Source: Candidatus Zipacnadum vermilionense (GTDB taxonomy: Bacteria; Armatimonadota; Zipacnadia; Zipacnadales; Zipacnadaceae). From it: a stretch of 64,000 nt of DNA. Each line of letters begins with the position of its first letter. Positions within the stretch are counted from its first letter, which is position 1. The position numbers and the translations under genes were made by a program. The notes under the pieces are model-generated. The model was not told the origin of the DNA. It searched no databases and saw only the letters and a program-made list of their open reading frames with translations. Below, piece by piece: positions 11,011 through 58,265 of this stretch. Where the stretch lies: positions 7,429 to 71,428 of the forward strand of contig JALGSV010000017.1 in assembly GCA_029821755.1 (NCBI GenBank), read 5' to 3'.

Positions 11011-12399
11011 ATGACCCGCCATTCTACCCTCCTGGTGATGGCCCTCACTCTTGTCCTGCCCGGAGTTGTGCTTGCCATGACCTCGAACGTGGCCGTGCCC
11101 TACAACCCTGATCCCTCCCCCCCGCGGTCACATGACGTGACCTTCTACACCGAGCGGCCCTCCGATTTCCTGTTCGACAGCGGAGACGAGATAGTCATCA
11201 TCTGCCAGTCATGGCGGCGATGCCTGGACCTGGACTGGGCGCTGTGCCGCAACATGGTGCGCACGCCGGTGCGCACCGGCCACGTTGCGCCGCTGCCCGG
11301 CAACTGCTACCGGATCGCAATCCCTACGGCGGGTCTTCTGCCGGGCTTCTACGACCTGCGGGTGAAGGTGCGCTACTCCGACAGCGACACCGGCGAGGGG
11401 GTCACCACCTTCGGTTGGCGGATCAACGAGGAACCGATCGTGGAGTACAAGCCAGACGACTTCGAGGCCTTCTGGGCGCAGGCGGTGGCGGACTTGCACC
11501 AGATCCCGCTGGACCTGCAGGTGGAACTGCAGCGGACGTTGGAGGGGCCGGAGATCGGCAAGTACAACTACGAGCATGCGGCCCTGCCCGAGCATCCCGA
11601 CCCCGTGGGGGAGAGGTACAATAGGGTAGAGGTCTACAAGGTAGACTTCGCCTCGTGCGACGGCAAGCGGGTGTACGCCTGGTTCACCAAGCCGGTGGGG
11701 GAGGGGCCGTTCCCGGGGCTGCTGGTGCTGCCGGGAGCGGGGACGGGGCCGCGGCCGGCGCCGGTGGAGCATGCGGCGCAAGGCTTTGCGGCGATGGATA
11801 TCCAGGTCCATAACCAGCCGGTAGACCTGGAGCGCTCGGCCTATCCGCCCTACCCGGCGGAGGACCTCAGCGCACCGGAAAAGATGGTGCATTACTACGT
11901 GTATCTAAACGCGCTGCAGGCGGTGAGCGCGCTGGCGGCCTGTCCGGGAGTAGACGCGGAGCGGCTGGCTTGCGCCGGGGGAAGCCAGGGCGGGCGGCTG
12001 AGCATCGTCGTTCCGGCGCTCGATCGGCGGATCAAGGCCACGGTCCCGGCCATCGCGCATTATGCCTACCTGCCGTGGCTGCACTGGACCGAGCGGATGA
12101 ATAAGCAGAAGAAGAGCGGCGCGGCGGGCTTCGCCCCGCGCGCCCTGCGGCCCACACAGACCACGGTGACGGAGAGCTACTTCGACATCGTCAACTTCGC
12201 GCCGCTGGTGCGCTGCCCGGTGCTGATGAACGCGGGGCTGATCGACCCGGTCTCGCCGGCCACGGGCGTCTTTGCGACCTACCGCAGTCTGACCTGCCCC
12301 AAGGAGATAGTCCCCATGCCCACCTGCGGCCACGACATCTCCTTTGCCTTTGACCGCCACGCCTTCCGGTGGCTGGAGGAGAAGCTGGAGGTGAAGTAA
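11011..12399 (+). CDS. secreted CE7-like acetyl-xylan esterase / cephalosporin-C deacetylase family serine hydrolase with an N-terminal extension
   Basis: Signal peptide MTRHSTLLVMALTLVLPGVVLA. The CE7 signature GGSQGG is present (CAGGSQGGRLSIVV). The C-terminal region DIVNFAPLVRCPVLMNAGLIDPVSPATGVFATYRSL resembles the CE7 block YFDxxNFAxR...GLxDxxCPPS, and the catalytic His is in CGHD. Confidence 0.65.
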   Translation: MTRHSTLLVMALTLVLPGVVLAMTSNVAVPYNPDPSPPRSHDVTFYTERPSDFLFDSGDEIVIICQSWRRCLDLDWALCRNMVRTPVRTGHVAPLPGNCYRIAIPTAGLLPGFYDLRVKVRYSDSDTGEGVTTFGWRINEEPIVEYKPDDFEAFWAQAVADLHQIPLDLQVELQRTLEGPEIGKYNYEHAALPEHPDPVGERYNRVEVYKVDFASCDGKRVYAWFTKPVGEGPFPGLLVLPGAGTGPRPAPVEHAAQGFAAMDIQVHNQPVDLERSAYPPYPAEDLSAPEKMVHYYVYLNALQAVSALAACPGVDAERLACAGGSQGGRLSIVVPALDRRIKATVPAIAHYAYLPWLHWTERMNKQKKSGAAGFAPRALRPTQTTVTESYFDIVNFAPLVRCPVLMNAGLIDPVSPATGVFATYRSLTCPKEIVPMPTCGHDISFAFDRHAFRWLEEKLEVK

Positions 12400-12638
12400 G
12401 GGCGGCCACCTTCGGCGCCGGGCCGCTCATCCGGCTCCGCCTCCGAGTCGTCGCTGCCCATGAGGACAGGTCCCGCCGGGACGAAGACCATCTCGACGGG
12501 AGGTGGCGTATAGAGGGCCGTCTCCAGTCGATGCCGCACCCAGGCCCGCCCGGCAAGCAGCGCCAGTAGCAGAGCGGCGAGCAGCAGCAGGACCGGCCAG
12601 GCCCAGCGGCGAAGCGTGTTTGTATTCTGAGTGCGCAA
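12400..12638 (-). pseudogene. N-terminal remnant of an FGE-sulfatase (SUMF1/formylglycine-generating-enzyme-like) gene
   Basis: The reverse-strand frame reads (TTG) RTQNTNTLRRWAWPVLLLLAALLLALLAGRAWVRHRLETALYTPPPVEMVFVPAGPVLMGSDDSEAEPDERPG. This is a TM/signal segment plus the characteristic MVFVPAGPFLMGSDD...ERP opening of FGE-sulfatase domains. Homology ends where the CE7 gene 3' end begins, and the rest of the domain is absent. Confidence 0.4.
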
Positions 12639-12864
12639 GTCTGAGAGGCTCCTTCCCGATGGTAGTCCTTCCCTTTGACTGCCGCGGGCCGCAAGAGTTC
12701 CCTGGGCGGCAAGGATTATCTGCGTTATGTGACACCTGTTCGATCTGCTGGGTGGCACCGTCTGCCACCAGCTCCCCGACCGTTGCCTGCCGTTTGTCTT
12801 TAGTCGTCCCCTCAGATGTGGTACACTGCCTCGACATCCCTGTGAGCGTCGGAGGTGACTTGTC

Positions 12865-14589
12865 GTGACTCAGCGTCTCAATGATGGTTCGATCGCAAAA
12901 TCATTCGTAATCACCCCGAAAGTTGATGAAAGGCGAGAGTTCCTCGAGATCTCTCGTGACTTCGGCAACCCGCTGGAACTGGTGCGGGAGGCCGTCAGCA
13001 ACTCATACGACGCCGGCGCGGAGGAGATACAGATCCTCTTCGACATGGTGCAGAGTGCCGGAGAGGACGTTCTCCGCATTTGCATCAACGACGACGGCGA
13101 GGGCATGGACGAAGGGGCATTGCAGGCTTTTTTTGACCTAGGAAACTCGCCGCGCAGAGAGCAGCGCCTCCAGGACCCGACCGTGATCCTGATCGGAGAG
13201 AAGGGGCACGGGACGAAGGTCTACTTCAACAGCGCCAGGATAGAAGTGACAACGTGCCGCGGGGCGGATCAAGACGAGTACAAGGCGGTCTTCGACAAGC
13301 CCTTCGCTCGCCTGAACGATTCCGAAAGCTCGCTGGAAGTGCAGGTCACGAGCAGACAGCCTCCGTCATGGTGGCACGGAACGAGAATCGAGATACTGAA
13401 CTACAACAAGAGCCGGCGCGGGCGTTTTTCTCACGCTCAGTTGCGGGACTATGTGCTGTGGTTCACTAGGTTCGGGTCTGTCCGAGACGAGCTCACCGAC
13501 GAACGGGACCCGACGGTCATGCGCTTGAAGGGCCTGGACCGCGAGGAACCCGAGAAGCTTGTGGCCGGTCACGTCTTTCCGAAGGAGAGCCCACCGACGA
13601 GTAAGCTGCTCGACGACTACATGGTCAAAGCGCCCGACCACTACGCCCGCCGCCTCAGGCGGCGGGGGCACTTGCCGGACTCTCCTGACATTGCTTACGA
13701 TGCGAGCTTCTGGGTGGAGGGGGACGGTATCAAGAGCGAGTACAACCCTATGATCCGCCGGCAAGGAAAACCGAGGCAAGAGGGTTCCTACCAGGTCCAG
13801 GAAAGGTACGGACTTTGGCTGTGCAAGGACTTCGTGCCTATTGAGGCTAGGAACGAGTGGATCATCACCAAGGGCCGTGAGTTCACAAAATTCCACGCAT
13901 TCTTCAACTGCCAGGCGTTCAACCTGACGGCAAACCGCGGGTCTGTGCAGAACACGCCGAGCGAGATTCTCGCCGAGGCCGAGAAGGTGTGCAAGGGCAT
14001 CTATCACGAGATTCTCGGGTCCACGGAGTGGACCGACCTGGAGTACCTCGACGAGCAGGCGGGAGCCTACACGACCTTGAAGAACGAACGGCGCGGGCTC
14101 GAGAGGCGGGTGAAGCACATAAAAAACGCACCGCGATGCGAGTACAAGGGGCGGACAATCCTAGCACCCAAGCAGGAGGCGGGGGTCTACTCGGTGTTCC
14201 TCATTCTGTCCATTCTCGAGCCGGACCTGTTCCCCTTCGAGGTGCTGGACTATGACACGCACCAGGGCATCGACATAGTCGCTCAGCCAAGAGGCGATAC
14301 GCCGATGACTGAGACCAAGCTCCGGTACGTGGAGTTCAAATATAGGTTAAGCGCCGGCTTCAACCACACCTTCGACAACCTGCACTCCATCGTTTGCTGG
14401 GAATTGGGACGCCAAGTCGATGAGGAGGTGCAGGACGCAGCCCAAAACCGACGTACACTCCAGAAAGCGCCACCTGGGGACGGTGAGCCAACGAAGTACT
14501 TCCTTGACGATCCAAAGAGTCCTCGTAAGATCGAGGTCCTCCTCCTACCTTTGTTCATCGATGAATGTTGCGGTATCAGATTCCAATAG
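12865..14589 (+). CDS. orphan GHKL-superfamily ATPase (HATPase_c_3-like Bergerat fold) with a long uncharacterised C-terminal region
   Basis: GTG start with GGAGGTGA upstream. The N-terminal ELVREAVSNSYDAGAEEIQI...ICINDDGEGMD matches the N-box and G1 of GHKL ATPases. The remaining ~400 aa carry no motif I recognise. GC is about 55%, against about 67% for the surrounding genome. Confidence 0.7.
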   Translation: MTQRLNDGSIAKSFVITPKVDERREFLEISRDFGNPLELVREAVSNSYDAGAEEIQILFDMVQSAGEDVLRICINDDGEGMDEGALQAFFDLGNSPRREQRLQDPTVILIGEKGHGTKVYFNSARIEVTTCRGADQDEYKAVFDKPFARLNDSESSLEVQVTSRQPPSWWHGTRIEILNYNKSRRGRFSHAQLRDYVLWFTRFGSVRDELTDERDPTVMRLKGLDREEPEKLVAGHVFPKESPPTSKLLDDYMVKAPDHYARRLRRRGHLPDSPDIAYDASFWVEGDGIKSEYNPMIRRQGKPRQEGSYQVQERYGLWLCKDFVPIEARNEWIITKGREFTKFHAFFNCQAFNLTANRGSVQNTPSEILAEAEKVCKGIYHEILGSTEWTDLEYLDEQAGAYTTLKNERRGLERRVKHIKNAPRCEYKGRTILAPKQEAGVYSVFLILSILEPDLFPFEVLDYDTHQGIDIVAQPRGDTPMTETKLRYVEFKYRLSAGFNHTFDNLHSIVCWELGRQVDEEVQDAAQNRRTLQKAPPGDGEPTKYFLDDPKSPRKIEVLLLPLFIDECCGIRFQ

Positions 14590-14655
14590 ACGCGCTGAGC
14601 GGGGCCGTTTCTCACCGGGAGCGCTCCAGGTACATTGACGCGAGGAGAAGAGCCA

Positions 14656-17223
14656 ATGTCGGACCGATACGATTTTCATGCCCTCGAGCCCAAGTGGCAG
14701 CAGCGCTGGGCGGAACGGAAGCTGTTTACTACCGTCACCTCCACGGAACGGCCCAAGTTCTACTACTTGGACATGTTCCCCTACCCCTCCGGCGACCTGC
14801 ACATGGGGCATGTGCGCAACTACATCATCGGCGATGTGATTGCGCGGCATCGGCACATGCAAGGGTTCAACGTCATGCACCCCATGGGCTGGGACGCCTT
14901 CGGCCTGCCCGCCGAGAACGCGGCCATCGAGCGCGGCATTCATCCCGCTATCTGGACCCAGGCTTCTGTGGTGAAGATGAAGGAGCAGTTCGACGCGCTG
15001 GGGATCACCTATGACTGGGCCCGCGAGGTCAACGCCGCCGCGCCGGACTACTACCAGTGGACCCAGTGGCTGTTCCTGCAGCTCTACCAGGCCGGTCTGG
15101 CCTACCGCGGGGAGGCCTCCGTGAACTGGTGCGGGTCGTGCAACACTGTGCTGGCGCGGGAGGAGCTGGAGGGCGCGGTCTGCGAGCGCTGCGGGACGCC
15201 GGTGGAGATCCGCCGCGTCCCGGGCCAGTGGTTCTTTGGCATCACCAAGTACGCCGAGCGCCTGCTGGAGGATATCGCCTTGCTGGGCAAGTGGCCCGAG
15301 CGGGTGCGCGTTATGCAGGAGAACTGGATCGGGCGCTCCACGGGCGTCCAGTTCCGGCTGGCGCTGGAGAACCGCCAAGGCCGGGCCGCCGGCCAGGAGA
15401 TCGAGGTCTTCACCACCCGCATCGACACCATCTATGGCATCACCTTCATGGCCGTGGCCGCCGAGCACCCCCTGGTCAAGGAACTGACCGCCGGGACCGA
15501 GCAGGAGGCGGCGGTGGCGGAGTTCGTGCGCCAGGCGGCGGTGGAGGCGGCTACCGACCGCGAGGCCGCGGCGGTGGAGAAGAAGGGGATGTTTCTGGGC
15601 GCCTACTGCCTGCACCCGCTGACCGGCGAGCGCGTGCCGATCTACGTGACCAACTACGTGCTGATGGAGTACGGCACCGGCGCGGTCATGGCCGTCCCCG
15701 CCCATGACCAGCGCGACCTGGAGTTCGCGCGGGAGTATGGGATTCCGGTGAAAGTGGTGATTCAACCGGAAGGGGAGAGCCTCGATCCCGCCACCATGAC
15801 CGAGGCGTACGTGGATCCCGGCGTCATGGTCAACTCCGGCTCCTACGACGGCATGACCAGCGCGCAGTTCACGGAGGCCATCGCTGACTTTCTGGAGGCT
15901 AACGGAATCGGGGAGCGGCGGGTCAACTACCGGCTGCACGACTGGCTGATCAGCCGCCAGCGCTACTGGGGCTGCCCCATCCCCATCCTCACCTGCGAGA
16001 ACTGTGGCGACGTGCCCGTGCCGGAGGAGCAGCTCCCGGTGCTGCTGCCGGAGCAGGCCGACTTCACCCCCACCGGGGAGTCGCCGCTGGCCCGCGTGCC
16101 CGAGTTCGTCAACACCACCTGCCCCCGCTGCGGCGGCCCGGCGAAACGCGAGACCGATACCATGACCACCTTTGTGGACTCGTCGTGGTACTACCTGCGC
16201 TACGCCAGCCCCGAGGCGACGGACGTGCCCTTCCGGCGTAGCGAGGCGGACTACTGGCTGCCGGTGGACAAATACGTGGGCGGGGTGGAGCACGCCGTAC
16301 GGCACCTGCTCTACTCGCGCTTCATCACCAAGGCGCTCCATGACCTGGGTCTCATTTCCTTCGTGGAGCCCTTCACGGAACTGTTCACGCAGGGGATGAT
16401 CTACAAAGACGGCGCGAAGATGAGCAAGTCCAAGGGCAACGTGGTGCGCCCCGAGGAGATCAGCGACCGGTACGGCACCGATACCGGGCGGACGTTCATC
16501 CTCTTCGTTGGTCCGCCCGACCAGGACGCGGAATGGAGCGACCGCGGCGTAGAGGGCTGCCACCGCTTCCTGCAGCGGGTGTGGCGGGCGGTGGTGGAGA
16601 ACGAGGAGCTGTGGCTGCCGGAGTGGGCGGAGGCGCTCTCTCCCGGTGGCGCCCGCGTCTCGCCCGCCGATCCTACCCCCCTGCCCCCCTCCCTAAAGGG
16701 AGGGGGGAGTGGAGGGGAGGCGTGCCGCGCCCTGCGCCGCAAGACCCACCAGACCATCGCCCGCGTCACCGACGATATCGCCAACATGCGTCTGAACACC
16801 ATGATCAGTGCCATGATGGAACTGACCAACGACCTGCTGCCCTTTGCGGCGCAGTTGACCGCCGAGGACACCGCCGGGCGGGCGGCGTTCAGCGAGGGTG
16901 TGGCTACGCTGCTGCACCTGCTCTCCCCGACCGCCCCGCACCTGTGCGACGAGCTGTGGGAGCGCCTGGGCCACGAGGGCAGCCTCTACGAGCAGCCCTG
17001 GCCGGAGTACGACGCGGCCATCGCCGCCGCCGAGAAGATCACCATCGTGGTGCAGATCAACGGCAAGGTCCGCGATCGTCTGGAGGTCCCTGCCGACACG
17101 CCGATGGAGAGGGTCCAGGAGCTGGCGCTGGCCCGCCCCACCATCCAGAAACAGGTGGAGGGCAAGACGATGCGGAAAGTGGTTGCGGTGGAGGGGAAGC
17201 TGGTGAACTTTGTGGTGGGGTAG
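14656..17223 (+). CDS. leuS: leucine--tRNA ligase
   Basis: The HMGH (HIGH-class) motif is present in YPSGDLHMGHVRNY, and KMSKS is present. The CP1 editing domain and a zinc-binding CxxC region are both present. GAGGAG sits 7 nt upstream of ATG 14656. Confidence 0.95.
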   Translation: MSDRYDFHALEPKWQQRWAERKLFTTVTSTERPKFYYLDMFPYPSGDLHMGHVRNYIIGDVIARHRHMQGFNVMHPMGWDAFGLPAENAAIERGIHPAIWTQASVVKMKEQFDALGITYDWAREVNAAAPDYYQWTQWLFLQLYQAGLAYRGEASVNWCGSCNTVLAREELEGAVCERCGTPVEIRRVPGQWFFGITKYAERLLEDIALLGKWPERVRVMQENWIGRSTGVQFRLALENRQGRAAGQEIEVFTTRIDTIYGITFMAVAAEHPLVKELTAGTEQEAAVAEFVRQAAVEAATDREAAAVEKKGMFLGAYCLHPLTGERVPIYVTNYVLMEYGTGAVMAVPAHDQRDLEFAREYGIPVKVVIQPEGESLDPATMTEAYVDPGVMVNSGSYDGMTSAQFTEAIADFLEANGIGERRVNYRLHDWLISRQRYWGCPIPILTCENCGDVPVPEEQLPVLLPEQADFTPTGESPLARVPEFVNTTCPRCGGPAKRETDTMTTFVDSSWYYLRYASPEATDVPFRRSEADYWLPVDKYVGGVEHAVRHLLYSRFITKALHDLGLISFVEPFTELFTQGMIYKDGAKMSKSKGNVVRPEEISDRYGTDTGRTFILFVGPPDQDAEWSDRGVEGCHRFLQRVWRAVVENEELWLPEWAEALSPGGARVSPADPTPLPPSLKGGGSGGEACRALRRKTHQTIARVTDDIANMRLNTMISAMMELTNDLLPFAAQLTAEDTAGRAAFSEGVATLLHLLSPTAPHLCDELWERLGHEGSLYEQPWPEYDAAIAAAEKITIVVQINGKVRDRLEVPADTPMERVQELALARPTIQKQVEGKTMRKVVAVEGKLVNFVVG
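16672..16720. repeat. GC-rich hairpin repeat, family 1, copy inserted in-frame inside leuS (CCCCCCTCCC-TAAA-GGGAGGGGGG core)
   Basis: The core is a perfect 10-bp stem with a TAAA loop. The extended arms are CCTACCCCCCTGCCCCCCTCCC and GGGAGGGGGGAGTGGAGGGGAGG. The element encodes ...PTPLPPSLKGGGSGGEA... within a variable linker of LeuS before the anticodon-binding domain. The same family occurs intergenically at 7203, 42266 and 43717. Confidence 0.6.
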
Positions 17224-17237
17224 GGGGCAAAGAAGGT
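17183..17237. repeat. direct repeat A (leuS 3' end), left boundary of the R-M cassette
   Basis: The sequence TTGCGGTGGAGGGGAAGCTGGTGAACTTTGTGGTGGGGTAGGGGGCAAAGAAGGT is about 95% identical to 19233-19284. Confidence 0.8.
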
Positions 17238-17240
17238 ACC

Positions 17241-18302
17241 ATGGCAGTCCAACATGCGCTCTTCTCTGAGGTCTTGCCCGCCTTTCCTTCGACGCGTTAC
17301 CAAGGGAGCAAGTCTAAACTGGTGGATTGGATCTGGCGCCAGATCGCCGACCTCAGTTTTGACACGTGCCTTGACGCGTTCGGAGGAACGGGGACAGTTG
17401 CCTATAGATTCAAGCAGGCAGGCAAGTCGGTCACTTACAACGACTCGCTGCGCTTCAACTACTACATCGGACTTGCGCTCATCGAGAACAGCCAAGTTCG
17501 GCTTTCGCCCGACGAGGTCGAAGGGCTCCTGCACAGGCATCCCGGTATCGAGTACCCCAGCTTTATCACCGACACCTTCCACGATGTCTATTTTACTGAT
17601 GCTGAGAACGCGTGGCTCGATCAAACCATCACCAACCTTCGTCGTCTAGATGACGAGTGCAAATTCGCCCTTGCCTCCTTCGCCCTGTGCCAGGCTTGCA
17701 TCATCAAGCGACCCTACAACCTCTTCCACCGAAAGAATCTGTACATGCGACTGTCGAAGGTGCAAAGGTCCTTCGGGAACAAGGTGACATGGGATCGGCC
17801 TTTCGAGGACTGGTTTCGCGTCTTCGTCGCTGAGGCCAATGAGGCGGTATTCGACAACGGGCGACTCAACCACGCCGCTAACTTCGACGCGGTGGAGATC
17901 GAGCAGCCATACGACCTGGTCTACGTCGACCCGCCGTATGTTTCCAGCCGCGGCACTGCCGTGGATTACCGGGACTTCTATCACTTCCTGGAAGGCTTGA
18001 CAATGTATGACGAGTGGCCAGAGCACATAGACTGGCACTCGAAGCACCGACGACTGGTCCCCAAACGGACGCCGTGGGCCGATAAGCGTGCCATTCTGAG
18101 CGCCTTTGACCACCTCTTCGCGAGATTCCAGGACAGCATCATCGTTGTCTCGTACCGGACCGACGGCATTCCGTCCGAGCAGGAACTTGCCTCGGTTCTT
18201 CATCGCTATAAGAAGAATGTTCTCGTGGAACACTACGGCCACTACAAGTACGTGCTATCCAGGAAAGGGGACTCCAAGGAGATGTTGCTCGTAGGGACAT
18301 GA
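17241..18302 (+). CDS. N6-adenine DNA methyltransferase, D12 class (Dam / M.EcoRV family)
   Basis: Motif I is LDAFGGTG. The motif YQGSKSK matches the Dam (Y/W)xGxK motif. Catalytic motif IV is DPPY, in DLVYVDPPY. GC is about 55%. The gene overlaps the downstream endonuclease gene by ATGA. Confidence 0.85.
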   Translation: MAVQHALFSEVLPAFPSTRYQGSKSKLVDWIWRQIADLSFDTCLDAFGGTGTVAYRFKQAGKSVTYNDSLRFNYYIGLALIENSQVRLSPDEVEGLLHRHPGIEYPSFITDTFHDVYFTDAENAWLDQTITNLRRLDDECKFALASFALCQACIIKRPYNLFHRKNLYMRLSKVQRSFGNKVTWDRPFEDWFRVFVAEANEAVFDNGRLNHAANFDAVEIEQPYDLVYVDPPYVSSRGTAVDYRDFYHFLEGLTMYDEWPEHIDWHSKHRRLVPKRTPWADKRAILSAFDHLFARFQDSIIVVSYRTDGIPSEQELASVLHRYKKNVLVEHYGHYKYVLSRKGDSKEMLLVGT

Positions 18303-19120
18303 GTCCGCATACAGGAGGCAGAATGATTGCCGAACAGTTTCGGAGCCAATTGATGGACTACTGCGCGAGGTTCAGGGAGGCCCTATCAACCGAAGCTGGC
18401 GACTGGGCCGTGAAGGGCTTCATAGATGTGTACCGCAACATCTACACCATCTCCGCAGACACCAAGGTCATCTCGAAGATCATCGAACTGATGCTCTTTC
18501 CCCTCATTTCCCTTTTCGCCGAGGAGAACGGCTACAAGATGGTTCTTTCCGAGTATCAGAACCACTACCCTGACGTGACTTTCGTGGCCCAAGACGGAAC
18601 CAAGATCGCCCTAGATCTAAAGAGTACCTACCGGACGGATGAGAACACTGTGAACGGTTTTACGCTTGGGTGCTTTACTGGCTACTTCCGTGACCGGGAG
18701 AGCGAGAAGAATATCACTTTTCCTTACGGGGATTACGCGTGTCACCTCGTGCTGGGTGTCATTTACTCCCGAACCGAGGAGTACCTGGATGAGCGTCATG
18801 TCTATCCCATCGAGGACCTACCGAACATTCTCTCGGTCGTCAAAGATTTCGAGTTCCTGGTGCAGGGGAAATGGTGCATCGCCGGAACGCGACCGGGTAG
18901 TGGGAATACCAAGAACATCGGTTCAGTGAATCGGGTCGCTGATCTGACTGGCGGCACAGGCCCCTTTGCACGACTCGGGGAGGAAGTCTTCGACGATTAC
19001 TGGACCAATTACCTCACGAAGGACATGGCGCGGGCCATTGACTCCAAGGTGCCATACCGGAATCTGCAGGAGTATCTCGCCTGGCGGAAACCCAGCAAGC
19101 GGGCGAGGTCACCCCGATAA
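18299..19120 (+). CDS. type II restriction endonuclease, EcoRV family (PD-(D/E)xK)
   Basis: There is block-by-block similarity to EcoRV. SADTKVISKIIELMLFPLISLFAEENGY aligns with GSDTKVLSTIFELFSRPIINKIAEKHGY. QNHYPDVTF...KIALDLKSTY aligns with QQNHYPDFTL...KIAIDIKTTY, which carries the catalytic D/D/K. GFTLGCFTGY, KWCIAGTRPGSGNTKNIGS and DDYWTNY align with KFTLGGYTSF, KWVIAGDLAGSGNTTNIGS and LDYWRNY. GC is about 52%. Confidence 0.85.
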   Translation: MSPHTGGRMIAEQFRSQLMDYCARFREALSTEAGDWAVKGFIDVYRNIYTISADTKVISKIIELMLFPLISLFAEENGYKMVLSEYQNHYPDVTFVAQDGTKIALDLKSTYRTDENTVNGFTLGCFTGYFRDRESEKNITFPYGDYACHLVLGVIYSRTEEYLDERHVYPIEDLPNILSVVKDFEFLVQGKWCIAGTRPGSGNTKNIGSVNRVADLTGGTGPFARLGEEVFDDYWTNYLTKDMARAIDSKVPYRNLQEYLAWRKPSKRARSPR

Positions 19121-19168
19121 CGCCATGCAGCTACAGCACTAGCTGTTGGCGGAAAGCCCGTGCAAGCC

Positions 19169-19273
19169 ATGAAGACCCTCTTCACCGGCCAGAAGAACCA
19201 CGACTGGAAGCGATCGACGCCCTTTGGCGAGATTGCGGTGGAGGGGAAGCTGGTTAACTTTGTGGTGGGGTAG
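19169..19273 (+). other. chimeric junction remnant: 63 bp homologous to the thuA-like 5' end, fused to a second copy of the leuS 3' end (direct repeat B, 19233-19284)
   Basis: It reads MKTLFTGQKNHDWKRSTPFGE-IAVEGKLVNFVVG*. The first part is about 78% identical to the start of the gene at 19412 (MQTIKTLLLTGQNNHDWQRSTPF). The second part duplicates the leuS C-terminus. Confidence 0.7.
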
Positions 19274-19411
19274 GGGCAGAAGGTGAGGCTAGGGTGACCC
19301 AGGCCGGGGTCGTGCAGGGAGACACTCCCCCGCGGCCTCAAGAAGCAGCCGGACGGGGGTTGAACACGCCCTAAACGCAACTGGCTCACACCATTTCCGA
19401 AGGAACCAAAC

Positions 19412-20125
19412 ATGCAAACTATCAAGACCCTCCTGCTCACGGGCCAGAACAACCACGACTGGCAGCGCTCGACGCCCTTTGTGCGGGACTTGCTGGAGGC
19501 CACCGGGAAGTTCTCGGTGGACGTGGCTGACGACCCCAGCCGGACGCTGTCGTGCTCGGCGGAATTGGCGCAATATAGCCTGATCTTCTCCGACTACAAC
19601 GGGCCGGAGTGGGACGCCCTGGCTCAGGAGAACTTCGCCGCCGTGGTCGGGAACGGGACCGGGCTGGTGATCTTGCACGCCGCGGACAACACCTTCCCCG
19701 GCTGGGTGGAGTACGAGAAGATGGGCGGGATCATGTGGCGGGAAGGCGCGGGGCACGGGGCCTTCCACGAGTTCCCCGTGACCATCCGCGACCACGAGCA
19801 CCCCATCACCCGCGGCGTGGGGGACTTCCTGATCTGGGATGAGCTGTACGCCAACCTCAGCCACATGCACGGGGTGCCGTACGAGGTGCTGGCCACGGGC
19901 TTCTCCGCCACCGAATCCGGTGGTACGGGTAAAGACGAGCCGGTGATGGTCACTACCCAGTACGGCCAGGGCCGCGTGTTCCACATGGTGCTGGGGCACG
20001 TCTGGCCGGTAGGCGAGGATCCCACCTACAAGGGCTCGACGATGATCACCTTCGAGAACGCCGGCTTCCAGACAACGCTCGTGCGAGGGTGCGAGTGGGC
20101 GGCGACGGGTGAGGTGGCGGACTGA
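19412..20125 (+). CDS. ThuA-like (trehalose-utilisation / class-I glutamine-amidotransferase-like) protein
   Basis: 237 aa. The ThuA family pattern is LLLTGQNNHDW...FSDYNGPEW...GLVILHAADNTFPGW...GHGAFHEFP. Confidence 0.65.
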   Translation: MQTIKTLLLTGQNNHDWQRSTPFVRDLLEATGKFSVDVADDPSRTLSCSAELAQYSLIFSDYNGPEWDALAQENFAAVVGNGTGLVILHAADNTFPGWVEYEKMGGIMWREGAGHGAFHEFPVTIRDHEHPITRGVGDFLIWDELYANLSHMHGVPYEVLATGFSATESGGTGKDEPVMVTTQYGQGRVFHMVLGHVWPVGEDPTYKGSTMITFENAGFQTTLVRGCEWAATGEVAD

Positions 20126-20603
20126 GCGCGAGCACGGCCGGCGCCATCCTTCCCGGTACAAGCTGCGCCAGGGAGGGGGGCTGGCAGTGGGCATGGGGGA
20201 GATACTGGACGGGAAGCCGATGGAGCAACTAGGCGGGATGGCGAAGCGCTGGCGCCAGGGCCTGGCCCGTCCCCCGATTCCCCGGGGGCTGTAGTACCTC
20301 ATGGGGAACTGGGGCTGGAAACGTGAGGCAAAGAAGCACGGCGCCCGGCGGCGGCTCTATCGCTGCCCCTTGCCATACTCTGACGGAAGAGGTGTCCTGG
20401 GAGTAGGTCCTCGCCTTCCACGAGGCAATGGAGGAGTACAGAGACTATCCGCATCCCGGAGGGGCCGCATAGGTGGCTCACGCGGAAGGCGCGAGACGCA
20501 AGTTCGCACGCGAACTCAGCCTATGCGGCTCACGCTCGCCCCGAAGCACCGACCAGGCGTTGCTCCAACTAACGCGCGCTTCGCGCGCTTGAGGTGATTA
20601 CCC

Positions 20604-21614
20604 ATGCCCGGCAATCCCACTATCGTCTTCGCCGCCCCCTGCGAGGTCGTCATCGAGGATCGTGACGTCCCCTCCCCCGGCCCCGGTGAGTTGCTCATCC
20701 GCACCCGGCTGACCCTCATCAGCACCGGCACCGAGCTAACCATCCTGGAGGGCAAGTACCCGCCCGGCTCCGCCTGGGCGCGCTACGGCAAGTTCCCCTT
20801 CGCCGCCGGCTACAACAACATCGGGGAGGTCGTCGGGGTCGGACCGGAAGTAGCCGAGGAGTGGATTGGCCGCCGGATTGCCACCCAGGGGAACCACGCA
20901 CAGTACCTGTGCCTGCCGCCCGCCCTCGCGCGGCCGATCCGGCCGGAGGTTGCCGACGAACAGGCGGTCTTCTTCACCATCGCCGAGATCGTGATGAACG
21001 GCATGCGCCGCGGCGGGGTGACCTGGGGGGAGGCCGCGGTGGTCAATGGCCTGGGGCTGTTGGGGCAGCTCGCAGTGCGCCTCTGCCGCCTGGCCGCAGC
21101 ACGCCCGGTCTTCGCCGTGGACCCCGCCGGCCCCCGGCGGGCGTGTCTGCCCGAGGATCCCGGCATAGTACCCGTCAACCCGCTGGAGCAGGACCTCGCG
21201 GAGCTCGTGGCGACCATGACCCGCGGGCGCAAGGCCGACGTGGTTTTTGAGGTCACTGGCAACCCCGACCTGATTCCGGGCCAGGTCTCCGCCTTGCGTC
21301 GCCAGGGGCGATTCGTGATACTCAGCAGTCCCAAGGGCCCCTCGCTGTTCGACTTCCACGACCTGTGCAACAGCCCCAGCTTCACCATCATCGGGGCGCA
21401 CAACGGCTCGCACCCGAAGTGCGAAGAAGGCGATAATCCCTGGACCATGCTCCGCCACGCGGAGCTGTTCTTCGACCTGCTGGCCCAGGGCGCCCTGGAC
21501 ATGACGCCGCTCATCAGCCACCGGGCCCCCTACACCGACGCTCCCATGCTCTACCAGATGCTGGTGGAGGACCGCTCTCAGGCGATGGGGGTGCTGCTGC
21601 GCTGGGGGGAGTAG
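20604..21614 (+). CDS. medium-chain (zinc-type) dehydrogenase/reductase family oxidoreductase
   Basis: A GroES-like N-domain (GPGELLIRTRLTLISTGTE) is followed by a Rossmann domain (VVNGLGLLGQLAV). It is paralogous to the gene at 57184-58200 (about 50% aa identity by eye). Confidence 0.7.
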   Translation: MPGNPTIVFAAPCEVVIEDRDVPSPGPGELLIRTRLTLISTGTELTILEGKYPPGSAWARYGKFPFAAGYNNIGEVVGVGPEVAEEWIGRRIATQGNHAQYLCLPPALARPIRPEVADEQAVFFTIAEIVMNGMRRGGVTWGEAAVVNGLGLLGQLAVRLCRLAAARPVFAVDPAGPRRACLPEDPGIVPVNPLEQDLAELVATMTRGRKADVVFEVTGNPDLIPGQVSALRRQGRFVILSSPKGPSLFDFHDLCNSPSFTIIGAHNGSHPKCEEGDNPWTMLRHAELFFDLLAQGALDMTPLISHRAPYTDAPMLYQMLVEDRSQAMGVLLRWGE

Positions 21615-53110: not shown

Positions 53111-54850
53111 ATGAGTGACACCTTGGGCCAATATCAACGCGGAGAGACCACCATTCCCACTACCCAGGCCGCGTGGCATGTGTATGGGGCGGGGATGGAG
53201 AACGTGGGGCGGGAGGGGAAGCCCGTCGAGATTCCTGTGAACCGTCCCGGTCCAGAGCAACTCCTGGCGCGGGTGGACGCCGCGGGAATCTGCTTCTCCG
53301 ACATCAAGATCATCAAGCAGGGCGGGGACCATCCGCGGCTGTACGGGCGCGACCTGGCCAACGATCCCATCGTGCCGGGGCATGAGGTGGCGCTGACTAT
53401 CGTGGAGGTCGGGGAGCAGTTGGCCGGGCAGTACCACGTCGGCGACCGGTTTGTGGTGCAGGCTGACATCTATGTCAACGGCAAGAACCTGGCCTTCGGG
53501 TACATGCTGCCGGGAGCGTTTGAGCAGTACGTGGTGCTGGGCGAGGAGGCTCTGCGCGGGGATGACGGGGCGTACCTCATCCCGATGCAGGACGAGACCG
53601 GCTATGCCGAGGCGGCTCTGGCCGAGCCGTGGGCATGCGTAGTGTGCGCGTATCGAACCGACTTTCGGCGGACGCTGAAGGAGGGCGGGGTGACGTGGAT
53701 AGTGGGCGGGGCAGACCGTACCGGGTATACGCTGGGCGCCCTGTCCGAGGGACCAGCGCCGGCGCGGGTCGTGCTGACCGAGGTGGCGCTGGAGCTGGCG
53801 GCCGAGATCACCGCCGCGGCGGAGAAGTGGGGCGCGACGATGGTAGCTACGCCGCCGCTGGCTGAACTGAACGTCACCACCGTCCAGGCGCAGGAGTCGC
53901 CGGAGGGCTTCGACGATATCATCGTCCTCGGCCCGCAGCCGCCGGAGCTGATCGAGGCGCTGGCGGCGGCGCTGGGCCGGGAAAGCGTACTCTCTCTGAT
54001 GACCGACCAGCCGCTGGCCCGGCCGGTGGAGATTGACCTGGGGCGGGTGCATTACGACTACACGCGCTACTACGGGCACGCGACGCCGGACCTGGCGGCG
54101 GCGTACCGGGAGACGCGCGCGCCGAACTTCACGCCGGGCGGGACCGCCTGGATCATGGGCGGGGCGGGGCCGATGGGGCAGATGCATACGCAGATCGCCG
54201 CGCAGGCCAGCGAGGGGCCGGGGACCATCGTGGTCAGCGATCTGGACGACGACCGCCTGGAGCTGGTTCGGGAGCGGCTGGAGCCGGTGGCCCAGGCGCG
54301 GGGGCGGCGGATGATCCTGCTCAACCCGAAGGCCCTGGGGCAGGAGGCCTTCGAGGCGCGGCTGCGGGAGATCGCGCCGGAGGGCTTCGACGACATCCAC
54401 GTGCTGGTGCCGGTCCCGGCGCTGATCGCCAGCGCCGTGCCCTTCGCGGGGAAGAACGGGTTGGTGGAGATCTTCGCGGGGATTCCGCGCGGGTCGGTGG
54501 CGGCGACGGACCTGTCGCCCGTGGCGCTGCACGGGGTGCGCTTCCAGGGCACCAGCGGCTCGGCCATCGAGGACCTGCGCACCACGCTGCACATGACCGA
54601 GGCGGGCGAGATAGACACCAACGCCTCGGTGGCGGGTATTGGGGGGATTGAGGCGGTGCACGAGGGGCTGGAGACGGTGCTGGCGATGGGCCTGCCGGGC
54701 AAGATAGTCATCTACCCGCAGATCAATGGCCTCCCCCTGACGCCGCTGACGGAGTTGGCGGAGAAGATGCCAGCGATAGCGGCGCTGCTAGGGCCGGGAG
54801 GGATTTGGACCAGGAAAGCGGAGAAGGCGCTGTTGGAGAGGTATTTGTAG
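53111..54850 (+). CDS. zinc-type alcohol-dehydrogenase-like protein (GroES-like N-domain) with a long C-terminal region
   Basis: GGAG lies 8 nt upstream. GICFSDIKII...PIVPGHEVALTIVEVGE matches the ADH_N fold, and a Rossmann-like GGAGPMGQMHTQ follows. About 580 aa. Confidence 0.6.
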   Translation: MSDTLGQYQRGETTIPTTQAAWHVYGAGMENVGREGKPVEIPVNRPGPEQLLARVDAAGICFSDIKIIKQGGDHPRLYGRDLANDPIVPGHEVALTIVEVGEQLAGQYHVGDRFVVQADIYVNGKNLAFGYMLPGAFEQYVVLGEEALRGDDGAYLIPMQDETGYAEAALAEPWACVVCAYRTDFRRTLKEGGVTWIVGGADRTGYTLGALSEGPAPARVVLTEVALELAAEITAAAEKWGATMVATPPLAELNVTTVQAQESPEGFDDIIVLGPQPPELIEALAAALGRESVLSLMTDQPLARPVEIDLGRVHYDYTRYYGHATPDLAAAYRETRAPNFTPGGTAWIMGGAGPMGQMHTQIAAQASEGPGTIVVSDLDDDRLELVRERLEPVAQARGRRMILLNPKALGQEAFEARLREIAPEGFDDIHVLVPVPALIASAVPFAGKNGLVEIFAGIPRGSVAATDLSPVALHGVRFQGTSGSAIEDLRTTLHMTEAGEIDTNASVAGIGGIEAVHEGLETVLAMGLPGKIVIYPQINGLPLTPLTELAEKMPAIAALLGPGGIWTRKAEKALLERYL

Positions 54851-55035
54851 GGGTACGTTTCAATACGCAGAGCGTTTAGTAACGCACATGACAAGCGCGG
54901 CTTTCGCAGAAGAAGGCCGCGTTTGCGCTGTGCTTGCACTCCTATTTGAGCGCATATTGGCGTGCGGGCATATGAAAACACTGCCATGTTCGCTGTGCAT
55001 GCCTTTGGCATGTGTGGCAGATGGTGCGCTGTCGC

Positions 55036-55064
55036 TTGACATTTCTGCATGAATATGCTACCAT
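55036..55064 (+). promoter_or_regulatory. strong sigma70-like promoter: TTGACA-17 nt-(TGc)TACCAT, driving a low-GC two-gene cassette
   Basis: Exact -35 hexamer TTGACA, with an extended -10 TGcTACCAT. GAGGAGG follows 8 nt before ATG 55096. Local GC is about 48%. Confidence 0.6.
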
Positions 55065-55095
55065 AGAGATAGCATATTAAGAGGAGGAAAGTGAA

Positions 55096-55491
55096 ATGCC
55101 CTTTGAGCGGTTTACGAGAGGCGGCAGGAGATACAGGCCTACGGTGTCCATCAACAAGGGGGGGATAATCGGGTTTAGCAGGGGTTCGTACCACAGATTC
55201 TCTCTCGGGAGATACACGCACGTGGTCTTGTTCTACGATGCGGAAACTCGGCGAGTTGGCGTCATGCTTGCTGTAGATTCGGAGGAGCCAGGAGCCATTC
55301 CGCTCCGGCCCAGGCCAGCGGAGAGTGGCGCAGACGTGTCAGCCAAGAGCTTCTTGGACTTCTACGGGATCCCCTACCAGCACGGAACTGAGCAATACGA
55401 TCCGGAGGTAGTTGACTTCGATGGACAGAAGATGGTAGTATTCACTCTCGCAGAGGAGCCTCCGGCGGGGGAGGACTTCTTCAATGATTGA
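55096..55491 (+). CDS. hypothetical small protein (131 aa), possibly AbrB/swapped-hairpin-like
   Basis: Strong SD. GC is about 55%. PTVSINKGGIIGFSRGSYHRFSLGRYTHVVLFYD is reminiscent of looped-hinge / AbrB-type DNA-binding barrels. This assignment is tentative. Confidence 0.45.
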   Translation: MPFERFTRGGRRYRPTVSINKGGIIGFSRGSYHRFSLGRYTHVVLFYDAETRRVGVMLAVDSEEPGAIPLRPRPAESGADVSAKSFLDFYGIPYQHGTEQYDPEVVDFDGQKMVVFTLAEEPPAGEDFFND

Positions 55492-55542
55492 GTGTGTGGT
55501 GGGCTGATAGAGATTCATGCCCAGAGGAGGTGAGAAAAGCAA

Positions 55543-55941
55543 ATGGCACAATGTTCGATAGTAGAATGGAAACCGACGGTCCCGATACACATCGTGATCT
55601 GGATCATTCTCACCGAGCGGGCTCTGGGCCCTAATCGTCCTGTTACCGCAGCGGTAATCGCCGACTTGGCAGGAATTCGGGACAACGCGCAGCAAACGCT
55701 GACGCGCCGGATTATCCGGGAGATGGTTCGCCTAGGCGCGCCGATCATCGGATCGTCTCGGGGGTTCTTCGTAGCAACCGACCCTGAGCAGGTCTTTCAC
55801 GGGGGGTATTGCCTCCTTGATCGCGCTGCCGAGGTTGAGGCACATGGCCGGGATCTGCTTCAGATTCACCAGAATCTCGGGGAGCACGGCCCCAACGACG
55901 AAAACGGAGAGACCATGCGCATGCGCATGGTCTCTCCCTGA
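55543..55941 (+). CDS. hypothetical winged-HTH protein (HTH_36-like, phage/plasmid-type)
   Basis: AGAGGAGGTGA SD. ILTERALGPNRPVTAAVIADLAGIRDNAQQTLTRRIIREMVRLGAPIIGS fits the wHTH pattern found in replication/regulatory proteins of mobile elements. Confidence 0.45.
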   Translation: MAQCSIVEWKPTVPIHIVIWIILTERALGPNRPVTAAVIADLAGIRDNAQQTLTRRIIREMVRLGAPIIGSSRGFFVATDPEQVFHGGYCLLDRAAEVEAHGRDLLQIHQNLGEHGPNDENGETMRMRMVSP

Positions 55942-55944
55942 ACT

Positions 55945-55982
55945 GGCGGGCGACCGTTTCTTGATGGGGGCGGTCGCCTGCC
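55945..55982 (+). terminator. hairpin terminator GGCGGGCGACCG-(13 nt)-CGGTCGCCTGCC
   Basis: 12-bp stem with one mismatch, immediately after the stop of the 55543 gene. Confidence 0.5.
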
Positions 55983-56221
55983 GCATTATGTCAGACCAAT
56001 GGCCTGGTGTCAATGTTCCGGAGAGCCCTCCCCTCTCCTCCTCCTCGGACCCTCCTCCATGCCACCTCCCCTCCCAACCACCTCTACTTCAGCGACGATC
56101 TTGACACCCTTCGTCGGTATGTCGCCTCCGAGTCGGCAGATTGGGGCCTTTGACGACTTCTGGCAATGGGGGAGCATACCGCTGGCGTCGGGATGAGCCC
56201 CCGATCAGTCTCCCTCCTCCT

Positions 56222-57040
56222 CTACTTCACCACCTTGTTGTCCTCGTCCGTTCCGTACCACCTTGGGATCTGCACGCCGGGTTCGCCCTTGTCGAAGCCG
56301 GGGGCGTTTAGGGTGAAGTGGCCGCCGAAGGGGTCTACGAAGACCTCGCACTTGGTGTCGGCGGGCAAGGCGTTGATGGCGGTGAAGATGCCCTCCGCCG
56401 GGGCGCAGAAGTCGAACAGGCCCAGGGCCAGGCGCAGCGGGGAGTGAATGCGGTGGGCGAAGTTGGCTGGGTCGAAGTACTCCACCACCTTGGCGATCTT
56501 CTGGGGGTCCTCGCCCGCCGGCGCGTGGGGGCCCCACTCCGCGTAGCCCAGGACGGTCCAGTCAATGCGGCACAGGGCGATGGCTGCCCCGGCGGCATCG
56601 GTAAGGGGGCGCAGGCCGGCAGCGACCAGGGTCAGCCCCGCGTAGTGCCCTCCGGAGTACCCGAATAGGTGAGGTCGATGGTGTCCGGGCCGAAGGTGTA
56701 AGACAGGTTCCAGCCGTGCCCGTCGGCAGTGACCACGTTGTCCTTCACCGTAGGGGCGCCGGGCATGGAGGCGACGATATACCACTGGTTCATAGGCGAG
56801 GCGAAGACGCCGGTGGCGGTGCCTCCCTTCTCGGCCCAGACAACCTCGGTGGGCGGGGCCATGAACTCCTGCCCGGCGATGACCAGGGAGGACAGGGCAC
56901 CCTGTCCGTCCACCTGGGCAGTGTAGACGTCGGTCTGCACGGAGAAGCCGTCACCGGCGGGGGTGGACGGGTGCGGCGGTGCAGAGGGCCGCGCAGGCGA
57001 GCAAGAGCATGACAGCAAGCAGTACTGAGAGCTGGTTCAT
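56222..57040 (-). pseudogene. secreted CE7/AXE-like esterase disrupted by two frameshifts
   Basis: The signal peptide (MNQLSVLLAVMLLLACAALC, frame 0) stops after 29 codons. A believable domain continues in frame +1 (AGDGFSVQTDVYTAQVDGQ...NLSYTFGPDTIDLTY). The rest returns to frame 0, with GYSGG and the CE7-like C-terminus KVVEYFDPANFAHRIHSPLRLALGLFDFCAPAEGIFTAINAL. The shifts lie near 56960 (G5 run) and 56665. Confidence 0.5.
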
Positions 57041-57183: not shown

Positions 57184-58200
57184 TCAGTTCCCTGTTCGCC
57201 AGTCCAACACTACCCCCATCGCCTCCGAGCGGTCCTCCAGTAGCATCTCAAAGAGGGCCGGGCCATCTTCCCACGTGCCCCGATGTGTGATTAGCGACCC
57301 CGTCTCCACTTGCCCCGCGGCCAGCAGGTCGAGGAACAGCTCGGTGTGGCGGGCGAAGGTCCACTGGTAGTCGCCGGTCTCGACTGCGGGGTGAGAAAGC
57401 GTGTGCATGCCGATAATCGAGATACTGGGGTAGTGGCACAGATCACAGAAGCTGAAGTCGGTGTTGCCGCGGGGGCTGCTCAGGATAGCGAAGCGGCCCT
57501 GGCGGCGGACGGCCTGGATCTCCTCGGGGATGAGCGAGGCGACCCCGGTCAGCTCGAAGGCGCAGTCGGCGAGGCGACTACGAGTCAGTTCGCGAATGGC
57601 CTCGAGAGAGTCGGTCTCCTGCGCGTTCACCGTATAGACACCGGGGTCCTCGGGGAGCATCGCCAGGCGCTTCGGGGCTACGTCCACGCCGATGACCGGC
57701 CAGGCGCCGGACAGGCGGCTGTAGCGGACCGTGAGTTGGCCGAGCAGGCCCAGGCCGTACACGACTACGCTGTCACCCCACCGCACCTTCGCCCGGCGCA
57801 CCCCGTTCATGCAGATGCCGGAGATGGTGAAGAAGGAGGCGTCCTTATCCGCCAGACCCTCCGGGACGCGGGTGAGGGAGGAGGCGGAGATGACGTTGTA
57901 CAAGGCGTGCCTGCCGGTGGAGGCGACCCGCGCGCCGAGCCAGGCCTCGTCCACGCCGGGGCCGAGGCCGACGACTTCGCCAATGTTGCTGTAGCCTGGT
58001 TTGACGGGAAACTTACCCCAACGGGTGTCCCACAGGGAGCCCTTCGGATAATCCCCGCTGAGCGTGGTAAGCTCGGTGCCGGTGCTGATGAGAGAGCAGC
58101 GGGACTTGATCAGTACCTCGCCCTCGGCGGGTACGGGCATAGGGGAGTCCTCCAGGATGACCTTACGGACTTCCGGGAAGATGATCTGCGGGTTGTTCAT
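57184..58200 (-). CDS. medium-chain (zinc-type) dehydrogenase/reductase family oxidoreductase (paralog of 20604-21614)
   Basis: EGEVLIKSRCSLISTGTELTTLSGDYPKG...GYSNIGEVVGLGPGVDEAWLGARV parallels the 20604 protein block for block. Confidence 0.7.
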   Translation of the reverse strand: MNNPQIIFPEVRKVILEDSPMPVPAEGEVLIKSRCSLISTGTELTTLSGDYPKGSLWDTRWGKFPVKPGYSNIGEVVGLGPGVDEAWLGARVASTGRHALYNVISASSLTRVPEGLADKDASFFTISGICMNGVRRAKVRWGDSVVVYGLGLLGQLTVRYSRLSGAWPVIGVDVAPKRLAMLPEDPGVYTVNAQETDSLEAIRELTRSRLADCAFELTGVASLIPEEIQAVRRQGRFAILSSPRGNTDFSFCDLCHYPSISIIGMHTLSHPAVETGDYQWTFARHTELFLDLLAAGQVETGSLITHRGTWEDGPALFEMLLEDRSEAMGVVLDWRTGN

Positions 58201-58265
58201 GGGAGTAGACCTCAGACCTCAGATTCGGAACTCGAGTCGCGAGTCGGGTGACGGGAAGGCGGACG

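Follow-up and report, generated by a model that had tools for sequence, protein, structure and literature searches.

The subject of this analysis is a gene in a stretch of 64,000 nucleotides (nt) of DNA from Candidatus Zipacnadum vermilionense, referred to below as the window. The gene lies between an AXE1-type esterase gene and leuS and encodes a protein of 574 amino acids (aa), whose N-terminal part is an ATPase of the GHKL (Bergerat-fold) superfamily and whose C-terminal part carries a putative nuclease active site. Residue numbers refer to the 574-aa product of the open reading frame (ORF) 12865..14589. This ORF, with the ExxxNSxDA N-box and the DDGxGM G1 motif reported in an earlier note on the same DNA, is present as described. 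The features of the gene and its product are the following.

12851..12855, + strand: ribosome-binding site GGAGG, 9 nt 5' of the GTG start, read from the sequence
12865..14589, + strand: GHKL ATPase–nuclease-like gene, complete, with a GTG start; 574 aa, all family-invariant residues kept
12952..13464, + strand: Bergerat-fold ATP-binding domain, aa ~30-200 (Pfam HATPase_c_3, invariant columns, hhalign)
13465..14019, + strand: middle (transducer-like) domain, aa ~200-385 (AlphaFold2 (AF2) model and Foldseek; invariant QERYGLW and LTANRGS (R358) motifs)
14023..14127, + strand: long helix, aa 387-421, joining the ATPase module to the C-terminal domain (DSSP on the AF2 model)
14128..14586, + strand: family-specific C-terminal domain, aa 422-574, with a putative PD-(D/E)xK-type active site (conservation and AF2 topology)

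The ATP-binding motifs are well defined. The N-box reads E42-A-V-S-N46-S-Y-D49-A and the G1 motif D76-D-G78-E-G80-M, and a G2 motif that had not been named before is present as G111-E-K-G-H-G116. In an alignment of 40 sequences (A1), the residues E42/N46/D49, D76/G78/G80, and G111/G114/G116 are invariant; mean column identity is 63%, and more than 100 invariant columns are distributed over the whole length. The Pfam profile HATPase_c_3 (PF13589) matches above its gathering score (41.8 bits vs a cutoff of 25, E 1.3e-10). An AF2 model built on the 40-sequence alignment (predicted local distance difference test, pLDDT, 86; predicted template modelling score, pTM, 0.72) was compared with the PDB using Foldseek, which aligned 405-470 columns to HtpG, TRAP1, Hsp90, MORC3/4, SMCHD1, MutL, and TopoVI-B with E-values of 1e-12 to 1e-9. 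On the basis of these alignments to the Hsp90/MORC/MutL/TopoVI-B group, residues ~10-430 are assigned as a Bergerat ATPase followed by a transducer/middle domain, while the isolated middle domain matches no Pfam family at E ≤ 10. By its motifs, its Pfam match, and its transducer domain, the product belongs to the GHKL ATPase superfamily, and its ATPase and middle domains together retain all residues for binding and hydrolysing ATP.

The ~400 residues beyond the N-terminus had been considered free of motifs, which does not hold. Residues ~200-430 are modelled as a middle domain of the Hsp90/MORC type, and the last ~150 carry the invariant pattern E...D...ExK. D470, E490, K492, and H501 are conserved in 47 of 47 diverse members, distant ones included; E438, G468, and N500 are near-invariant (46/47 each), as is D462 (45/47). 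In the AF2 model, E438 begins a helix (438-451), D470 begins a strand (470-475, GIDIVA), and E490-F-K492 lies within a further strand (487-495, YVEFK). Modelled alone, the domain is compact (pLDDT 88) with an α-β-β-β core. As predicted in this model, the layout of the D, E, K, and H residues is that of the canonical active-site positions of PD-(D/E)xK nucleases.

A profile of the C-terminal domain, run with no word filter on 1.84 billion representative proteins, retrieved only 250 clusters, and in every full-length match the domain forms the C-terminus of a protein of 556-706 aa. Nine of ten distant carriers that were checked match a GHKL-ATPase family (eight of them above a Pfam gathering score), and the tenth has a sub-threshold HATPase_c match; neither DUF4263 nor NucS_C was found in any of the ten. 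The C-terminal domain is confined to this GHKL family and was never found without the ATPase. The protein is, as the earlier note held, a GHKL ATPase that stands alone and carries an unusual C-terminal module.

Homologs and their genomic contexts

The gene had been called an orphan, yet 1,342 homologs were retrieved from 5.8 billion proteins. The best 120 of these 1,342 are 534-592 aa long and 46-57% identical to the query over 93-100% of its length, and those that have a name are called 'ATP-binding protein' or 'hypothetical protein'. Among 185,579 GTDB species representatives, at least 213 have a homolog, the search having been pattern-limited; these homologs are 41-51% identical to the window protein and come from more than 12 phyla, including archaea. 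The hosts belong to Dehalococcoidia, Acidobacteriota, Bacteroidota, Bacillota, Spirochaetota, Chlorobiota, Nitrospirota, Verrucomicrobiota, Pseudomonadota, Thermodesulfobacteriota, Zixibacteria, and two archaeal classes. Such a flat, star-like pattern of identities is what horizontal spread combined with strong purifying selection typically produces.

Gene neighbourhoods were assessed from the annotated genes at 10 homolog loci, one of them on a plasmid, and by de novo clustering of ORFs in 80 GTDB-representative loci. Across these ~90 loci, no conserved partner gene was found and, in particular, no conserved methyltransferase or restriction endonuclease. The neighbours that do recur are a tyrosine integrase (7 loci) and a serine recombinase (4 loci), which are counts of loci and not measures of enrichment, together with IS3 and IS256 transposases, a group II intron reverse transcriptase, and a WYL/WCX regulator. 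One homolog locus (L002) adjoins the Gabija genes GajA/GajB and a second GHKL protein with a NucS_C domain, and the plasmid homolog is located amid anti-restriction, toxin-antitoxin, and methylase genes. Mobile elements and defence genes therefore recur near the homologs, a co-location that had been put forward as a check on a defence role, and no restriction–modification (R-M) partner is conserved among them. Comparison of unrelated loci revealed neither terminal repeats nor non-coding ends in common at the borders of the gene.

A separate association was observed in four related Lachnospiraceae loci (L040, L042, L051, L055), where a TOTE-type AEP primase-helicase-PLD gene encoding 985-988 aa is located ~110 nt downstream of the GHKL gene. 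The TOTE-type gene is a conflict-system gene, and its link to the GHKL gene is limited to this lineage.

The most detailed view of an insertion comes from a phage-borne homolog (P0085), which is identical in more than 129 contigs and is located between the large terminase (terL) and portal genes of an HK97-type head module. The loci of this type are the following.

Filled sites: L180-L185, L091-L093
Empty sites: L187-L195 and others

Alignment of filled and empty sites reveals an insertion of ~2.08 kb bounded by a duplicated TATGA (5 bp), which preserves the stop codon of terL and the start codon of portal. In IMG/VR contigs whose TerL is 77-82% and whose portal protein is 72-83% identical, the gene occupies the same place and the GHKL copies are 72-75% identical. 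Since the copies have diverged alongside TerL and portal, the GHKL gene has been inherited with the phage. It is absent from all 80 phage contigs recovered with a P0085-type TerL; terL and portal abut or overlap in 52 of these, including eight whose TerL is 98% identical. At the junction, 19 of 71 related phages have other cargo, 0.45-1.9 kb long, and for this reason the terL-portal junction is regarded as a general accretion site. No homolog was found in GenBank records of cultured phages.

Inspected by eye, the P0085 insertion is AT-rich upstream of the gene, where a -10-like TATAAT is seen, and has a hairpin with a trailing T-run downstream. With transcription signals read in this way, the insertion has what appears to be classic phage moron anatomy, a statement that concerns the phage copy and not the copy in the window. 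Many phage morons shield the lysogen from infection by other phages. In some of these phages, TerL is 888 aa long instead of 549 (L180:1747-4413, L183:532-3198) owing to a LAGLIDADG-type intein-like insertion. The presence or absence of the gene at the terL-portal junction provides a natural isogenic pair, useful for learning the effect of the gene on the prophage.

The leuS neighbourhood

The genes around the GHKL gene in the window are listed below.

11011-12399: AXE1-type esterase gene, directly upstream of the GHKL gene (Pfam)
12393..12758 (ORF 12279..12758), - strand: short remnant ORF, truncated at the AXE1 3' end
14656..17223, + strand: leuS, ATG start, 66 nt after the GHKL stop codon (Pfam)
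17224..19411, + strand: R-M insertion of ~2.2 kb, with a D12-class N6-adenine methyltransferase and an EcoRV-family restriction endonuclease (18299-19120) (Pfam, PADLOC)

The composition of the GHKL gene differs from its surroundings. Its GC content is 58.1%, compared with the ~55% claimed earlier, and its GC content at third codon positions (GC3) is 75.7%, while that of flanking native genes is 84-91%; the gene falls in the lowest 2% of same-size windows. Considering this composition, the sporadic spread of the family, and the mobile and defence genes next to homologs elsewhere, the GHKL gene looks horizontally acquired.

The closest relative found in metagenomes is L097, in which leuS is directly followed by a homolog, 80% identical, of the window ThuA-family gene at 19412-20125, and then by homologs of the window genes 20604 and 21648. 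Consequently, the R-M pair, whose genes have a GC content of 54-56% and whose endonuclease matches Pfam Endonuc-EcoRV with E 3.6e-99, is a discrete insertion in the window genome. On the upstream side of leuS, synteny is lost completely: within 10 kb, L097 has no homolog of the GHKL gene, the AXE1 gene, or the window genes further upstream, and none of its own upstream ORFs was found anywhere in the window. With a GC3 of 0.905 and a product 81% identical to its L097 homolog, leuS is by these measures a native gene between two low-GC insertions. It had been proposed that leuS is flanked on both sides by foreign DNA, and this holds, given an R-M insertion that is missing from L097 on one side and, on the other, a low-GC GHKL gene in a region lacking synteny. 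The further suggestion that the two belong to the same incoming island is not upheld. Because a native leuS separates them, their composition differs, and they are never found together elsewhere, the GHKL gene and the R-M pair are regarded as independent acquisitions. Neither target-site duplications around the GHKL gene nor tRNA genes as integration sites were found in the window.

The remnant ORF beside the GHKL gene had been described as a truncated FGE gene. A short truncated ORF is indeed there, and its product consists of a transmembrane helix followed by 'EMVFVPAGPVLMGSDDSEAEPDERP', an FGE-sulfatase-like N-terminal motif. The alignment of this peptide with the N-terminal end of PvdO, a protein of the FGE fold, is weak (E = 2), and the ORF has no Pfam match, so that its FGE identity is plausible and not proven.

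Two further observations concern the junction with leuS. A promoter-like site (TTGACG-16 nt-TAAGAT) is present at 14504-14531, inside the 3' end of the GHKL gene and ~125 nt upstream of the leuS start, and the inserted gene may now supply or overlap transcription signals of leuS. Between the two genes, within 14614-14631, there is a 10-bp perfect palindrome, GGAGCGCTCC. Elsewhere in the window, a third low-GC patch (0.56-0.58) at ~54400-56600 contains nothing but small ORFs without a Pfam match (55096-55491, 55543-55941, 54712-55221). The window also contains paralogues at 57199-58212 (-) and 20601-21605 (+); the product of L097 ORF 14207-15304 is 79% identical to window 20604-21614 and 53% identical to 57184-58200 (minus).

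Relation to known families

The closest tested parallel is found among Shedu proteins. VcSduA of Vibrio cholerae combines a GHKL domain with a PD-(D/E)xK nuclease; the substitutions E27A and K557A each abolish defence, and protection is observed at all multiplicities of infection (PMC12137116). For Shedu, Gu et al. suggested that the GHKL N-terminal domains might sense misfolded proteins (10.1101/2023.08.10.552793). The window protein resembles VcSduA and Shedu type I-D in being encoded by a single gene and in comprising a GHKL ATPase, an Hsp90/MORC-like middle part, and a C-terminal E/D/ExK-type domain. It also shares with them the lack of partner genes, as seen in the absence of a conserved neighbour in the ~90 loci, and a sporadic distribution. 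Compared by description only, E42 would correspond to E27 as the N-box glutamate and K492 to K557 as the ExK lysine. To our knowledge, VcSduA is the only stand-alone GHKL-nuclease fusion that has been tested. The window family differs from Shedu in that DUF4263 (PF14082) was found neither in the window protein nor in 40 close or 10 distant members. By analogy, the protein would work in a manner resembling GHKL-type Shedu (type I-D), with no DUF4263 domain.

A second parallel is paraMORC3, published as a family in which a GHKL domain and a domain of S5 type are combined with a conserved globular C-terminus bearing E-D-ExK. Its distribution is wide but sporadic, many of its genes stand alone in neighbourhoods that are not conserved, and profile searches in that study recovered RecB-family nucleases (PMC2292703). 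Matched to this published description only, the window protein agrees with paraMORC3 in its architecture, in the series E438...D470...E490xK492, and in being a stand-alone gene. A link to RecB or NucS-like nucleases was not recovered by profile searches with the window family.

Other families were considered and rejected. The window protein has the fold (residues ~10-430) and the ATP-binding motifs in common with Hsp90/HtpG, MORC, MutL, and TopoVI-B, and it differs from Hsp90 in lacking the C-terminal dimerisation domain and from MutL in lacking the C-terminal endonuclease domain; all sequence scores are far below the cutoffs of these families. The MutL model TIGR00585 scores 25.5 bits vs a cutoff of 180 and only over aa 36-88, with matches to MutL structures in the PDB at E ≥ 0.04; the scores of the sacsin and TopoVI-B models are far below their cutoffs. 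The earlier note had named mza and MORC-like systems as examples of this architecture, and neither membership is supported. MzaB (NF041932) scores 10.9 bits vs 850, PADLOC gives no MzaB match, and no neighbours of the MzaA/C/D/E kind are conserved; the MORC S5-domain motif GhXhhpXXRhl, sought by regular expression, occurs in 0 of 40 members. The best NCBIfam match is to the restriction enzymes BbrUII/HgiDII (NF050001), which, like their PADLOC REase_II counterparts (PDLC03419/03485), have in common with the window protein a GHKL N-terminus fused to a nuclease, putative in its case. This match was also rejected, as it reaches 42.5 bits vs 550, covers only aa 40-188, and is accompanied by no adjacent methyltransferase. 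The D12 methyltransferase nearby pairs with the EcoRV-type endonuclease beyond leuS.

A second GHKL-nuclease family (~655 aa, NucS_C-type) is widespread and is matched by the PADLOC REase_II models. At L002, it is represented in a two-gene unit (L002:9938-13038) that consists of a STAS-like/HATPase protein of 307 aa and a DUF4325-GHKL-NucS_C nuclease of 727 aa. This family was used as a stand-in for the comparison with Shedu and paraMORC3; the full-length search gave an alignment (A3), and the nuclease domain of the L002 protein searched alone gave one match. Aligned by hhalign, the ~655-aa family and the window family match with 97.4% probability over aa 33-244 and nowhere beyond. The window protein is ~80-90 aa shorter, and only the ATPase is common to both.

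Explanations and their weight

The best explanation, favoured by a narrow balance of judgement, is that the gene encodes a horizontally mobile, self-contained, single-protein defence nuclease gated by ATP. This follows the earlier suggestion of a single-gene defence role; the anti-restriction role suggested beside it finds nothing that points to it. In the proposed mechanism, ATP binding would dimerise the N-terminal domains and thereby close the clamp of the middle domains, probably around DNA, as in MutL, MORC, TopoVI-B, and Hsp90. Clamp closure would license the C-terminal nuclease to cut invading DNA, and ATP hydrolysis would reset the clamp. More speculatively, the invariant LTANRGS arginine (R358) may sense the γ-phosphate in the same way as the Hsp90 middle-domain arginine. 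Because no methyltransferase or other partner is linked to the gene, discrimination between self and non-self must, on this explanation, be a property of the protein itself. Its basis could be a DNA modification, a DNA end or structure, or a phage protein; with no methyltransferase linked, a mode that depends on modification, senses ends or structure, or is activated by a trigger is favoured.

Several results weigh against a defence nuclease. The isolated C-terminal part has no Pfam match even at E ≤ 10, a PDB profile search with the domain returned only noise, and Foldseek of its isolated model against the PDB and BFVD found nothing better than E 0.2-0.3. Aligned with the NucS_C-type nuclease domain of the second GHKL family, the domain reaches an hhalign probability of only 0.4-2%. 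PADLOC has no match for the window protein at E ≤ 0.01, and for one homolog (P0037), even at E ≤ 1, it gives only a REase_II model with a marginal match in the ATPase region. Finally, several homologs are found alone among metabolic genes with no defence gene in view. The nuclease assignment therefore comes down to the motif and the predicted topology, and because no significant homology or fold match backs these two, nuclease activity is treated here as a well-motivated inference and not as a result, albeit one considered quite probable.

The failure of these searches leaves some room for a C-terminal domain that is not a nuclease. The protein could then be an ATP-dependent sensor, a chaperone-like protein, or a toxic effector; it might, for example, set off abortive infection on binding a protein of the phage or the host, and the conserved D/E/K/H residues would be there for a different chemistry or for a ligand. 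Chaperones of the Hsp90 family are the best fold matches to the N-terminal and middle parts, and the proposal of Gu et al. that Shedu GHKL domains might sense misfolded proteins fits such a role. However, E...D...ExK with exactly this spacing on an α-β-β-β unit is the hallmark of PD-(D/E)xK enzymes and does not vary among the 47 divergent members, and the architecturally analogous proteins are nucleases. Moreover, in the weak hhalign alignment, at 2% probability, D470 and E490xK492 nonetheless fall opposite the D and ExK of the NucS-like nuclease. A non-nuclease domain is consequently considered unlikely.

A different possibility is that the gene is selfish. As a self-mobilising nuclease gene resembling a homing endonuclease, it would cut empty sites and be copied into them by repair, which would explain clean, integrase-free insertions of a single gene in phage and cellular genomes. 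The precise present/absent polymorphism between terL and portal, where TerL is 98% identical, both ORFs are preserved, and a 5-bp repeat is present, is compatible with homing. The same applies to the lone gene wedged beside conserved genes such as leuS in the window, RNR/TSCPD at L179, and purE at L004, and the LAGLIDADG intein in TerL of some of the same phages implies that the region attracts homing elements. Nevertheless, the insertion sites differ in every lineage with no common target or terminal sequence, and the terL-portal junction receives other cargo in related phages as well. The TATAAT and the hairpin with its T-run, as read by eye, fit a moron expressed in lysogens. An ATP-driven clamp of ~565 aa is, moreover, unlike any homing endonuclease that we know of. 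Taken together, these points make homing improbable.

A housekeeping function in DNA repair or as a chaperone, with the gene as a MutL or HtpG paralogue, is very improbable. It would be in keeping with the weak sequence matches to MutL, the fold resemblance to Hsp90 and MutL, and the homologs located among metabolic genes. A gene scattered over many phyla in only ~213 of 185,579 species representatives (a lower bound), present on plasmids and phages, atypical in composition for its source genome, missing from the L097 leuS region, and scoring 25 bits against a MutL cutoff of 180 does not behave as a housekeeping gene. Contexts of homologs that were uniformly housekeeping, or a C-terminal region matching a metabolic domain, had been named as evidence against a defence role, and neither was encountered. 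Least credible of all is that the gene works with the EcoRV-type R-M pair, as one island split by leuS or as an ATP-dependent R-M accessory of the kind known from MORC/paraMORC operons, since the two low-GC patches within 3 kb, the GHKL proteins embedded in R-M operons described by Iyer et al. 2008, and the BbrUII/HgiDII match are outweighed by the native leuS between them, the discrete R-M insertion between leuS and the ThuA-like gene that L097 reveals, the lack of a conserved methyltransferase or endonuclease partner, the confinement of the BbrUII match to the ATPase N-terminus (42 bits vs 550), and a GC content of 58% vs 54-56%.

For the family as a whole, the reading as an ATP-gated defence nuclease extends to a tentative proposal that falls just short of an even balance. 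The ~565-aa proteins would constitute a distinct, unnamed, predicted single-protein immune system, separate from DUF4263 Shedu, in which an ATP clamp gates a nuclease that is either diverged or a new fold variant. As a cassette of one gene, the system would pass between bacteria, archaea, plasmids, and temperate phages, in the last as a moron at the terL-portal junction. The logic of a GHKL clamp joined to a nuclease is already known, stand-alone fusions of this kind having been predicted in 2008 (PMC2292703); what is new is a large unannotated family with a private C-terminal domain.

For the source genome, the finding is modest: leuS is located between two independent, small, foreign cassettes, each of a single function. 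Its wider importance lies in a family that is large, highly conserved, and phylogenetically widespread and that no curated family or defence-finder model searched recognises. If it does protect against phages, a new single-gene system would be added to the defence catalogues, and there would be a second, independent example of an immune nuclease under the control of an ATP-driven GHKL clamp. This would also bear on the origin of MORC and SMCHD1-type proteins in eukaryotic genome defence.

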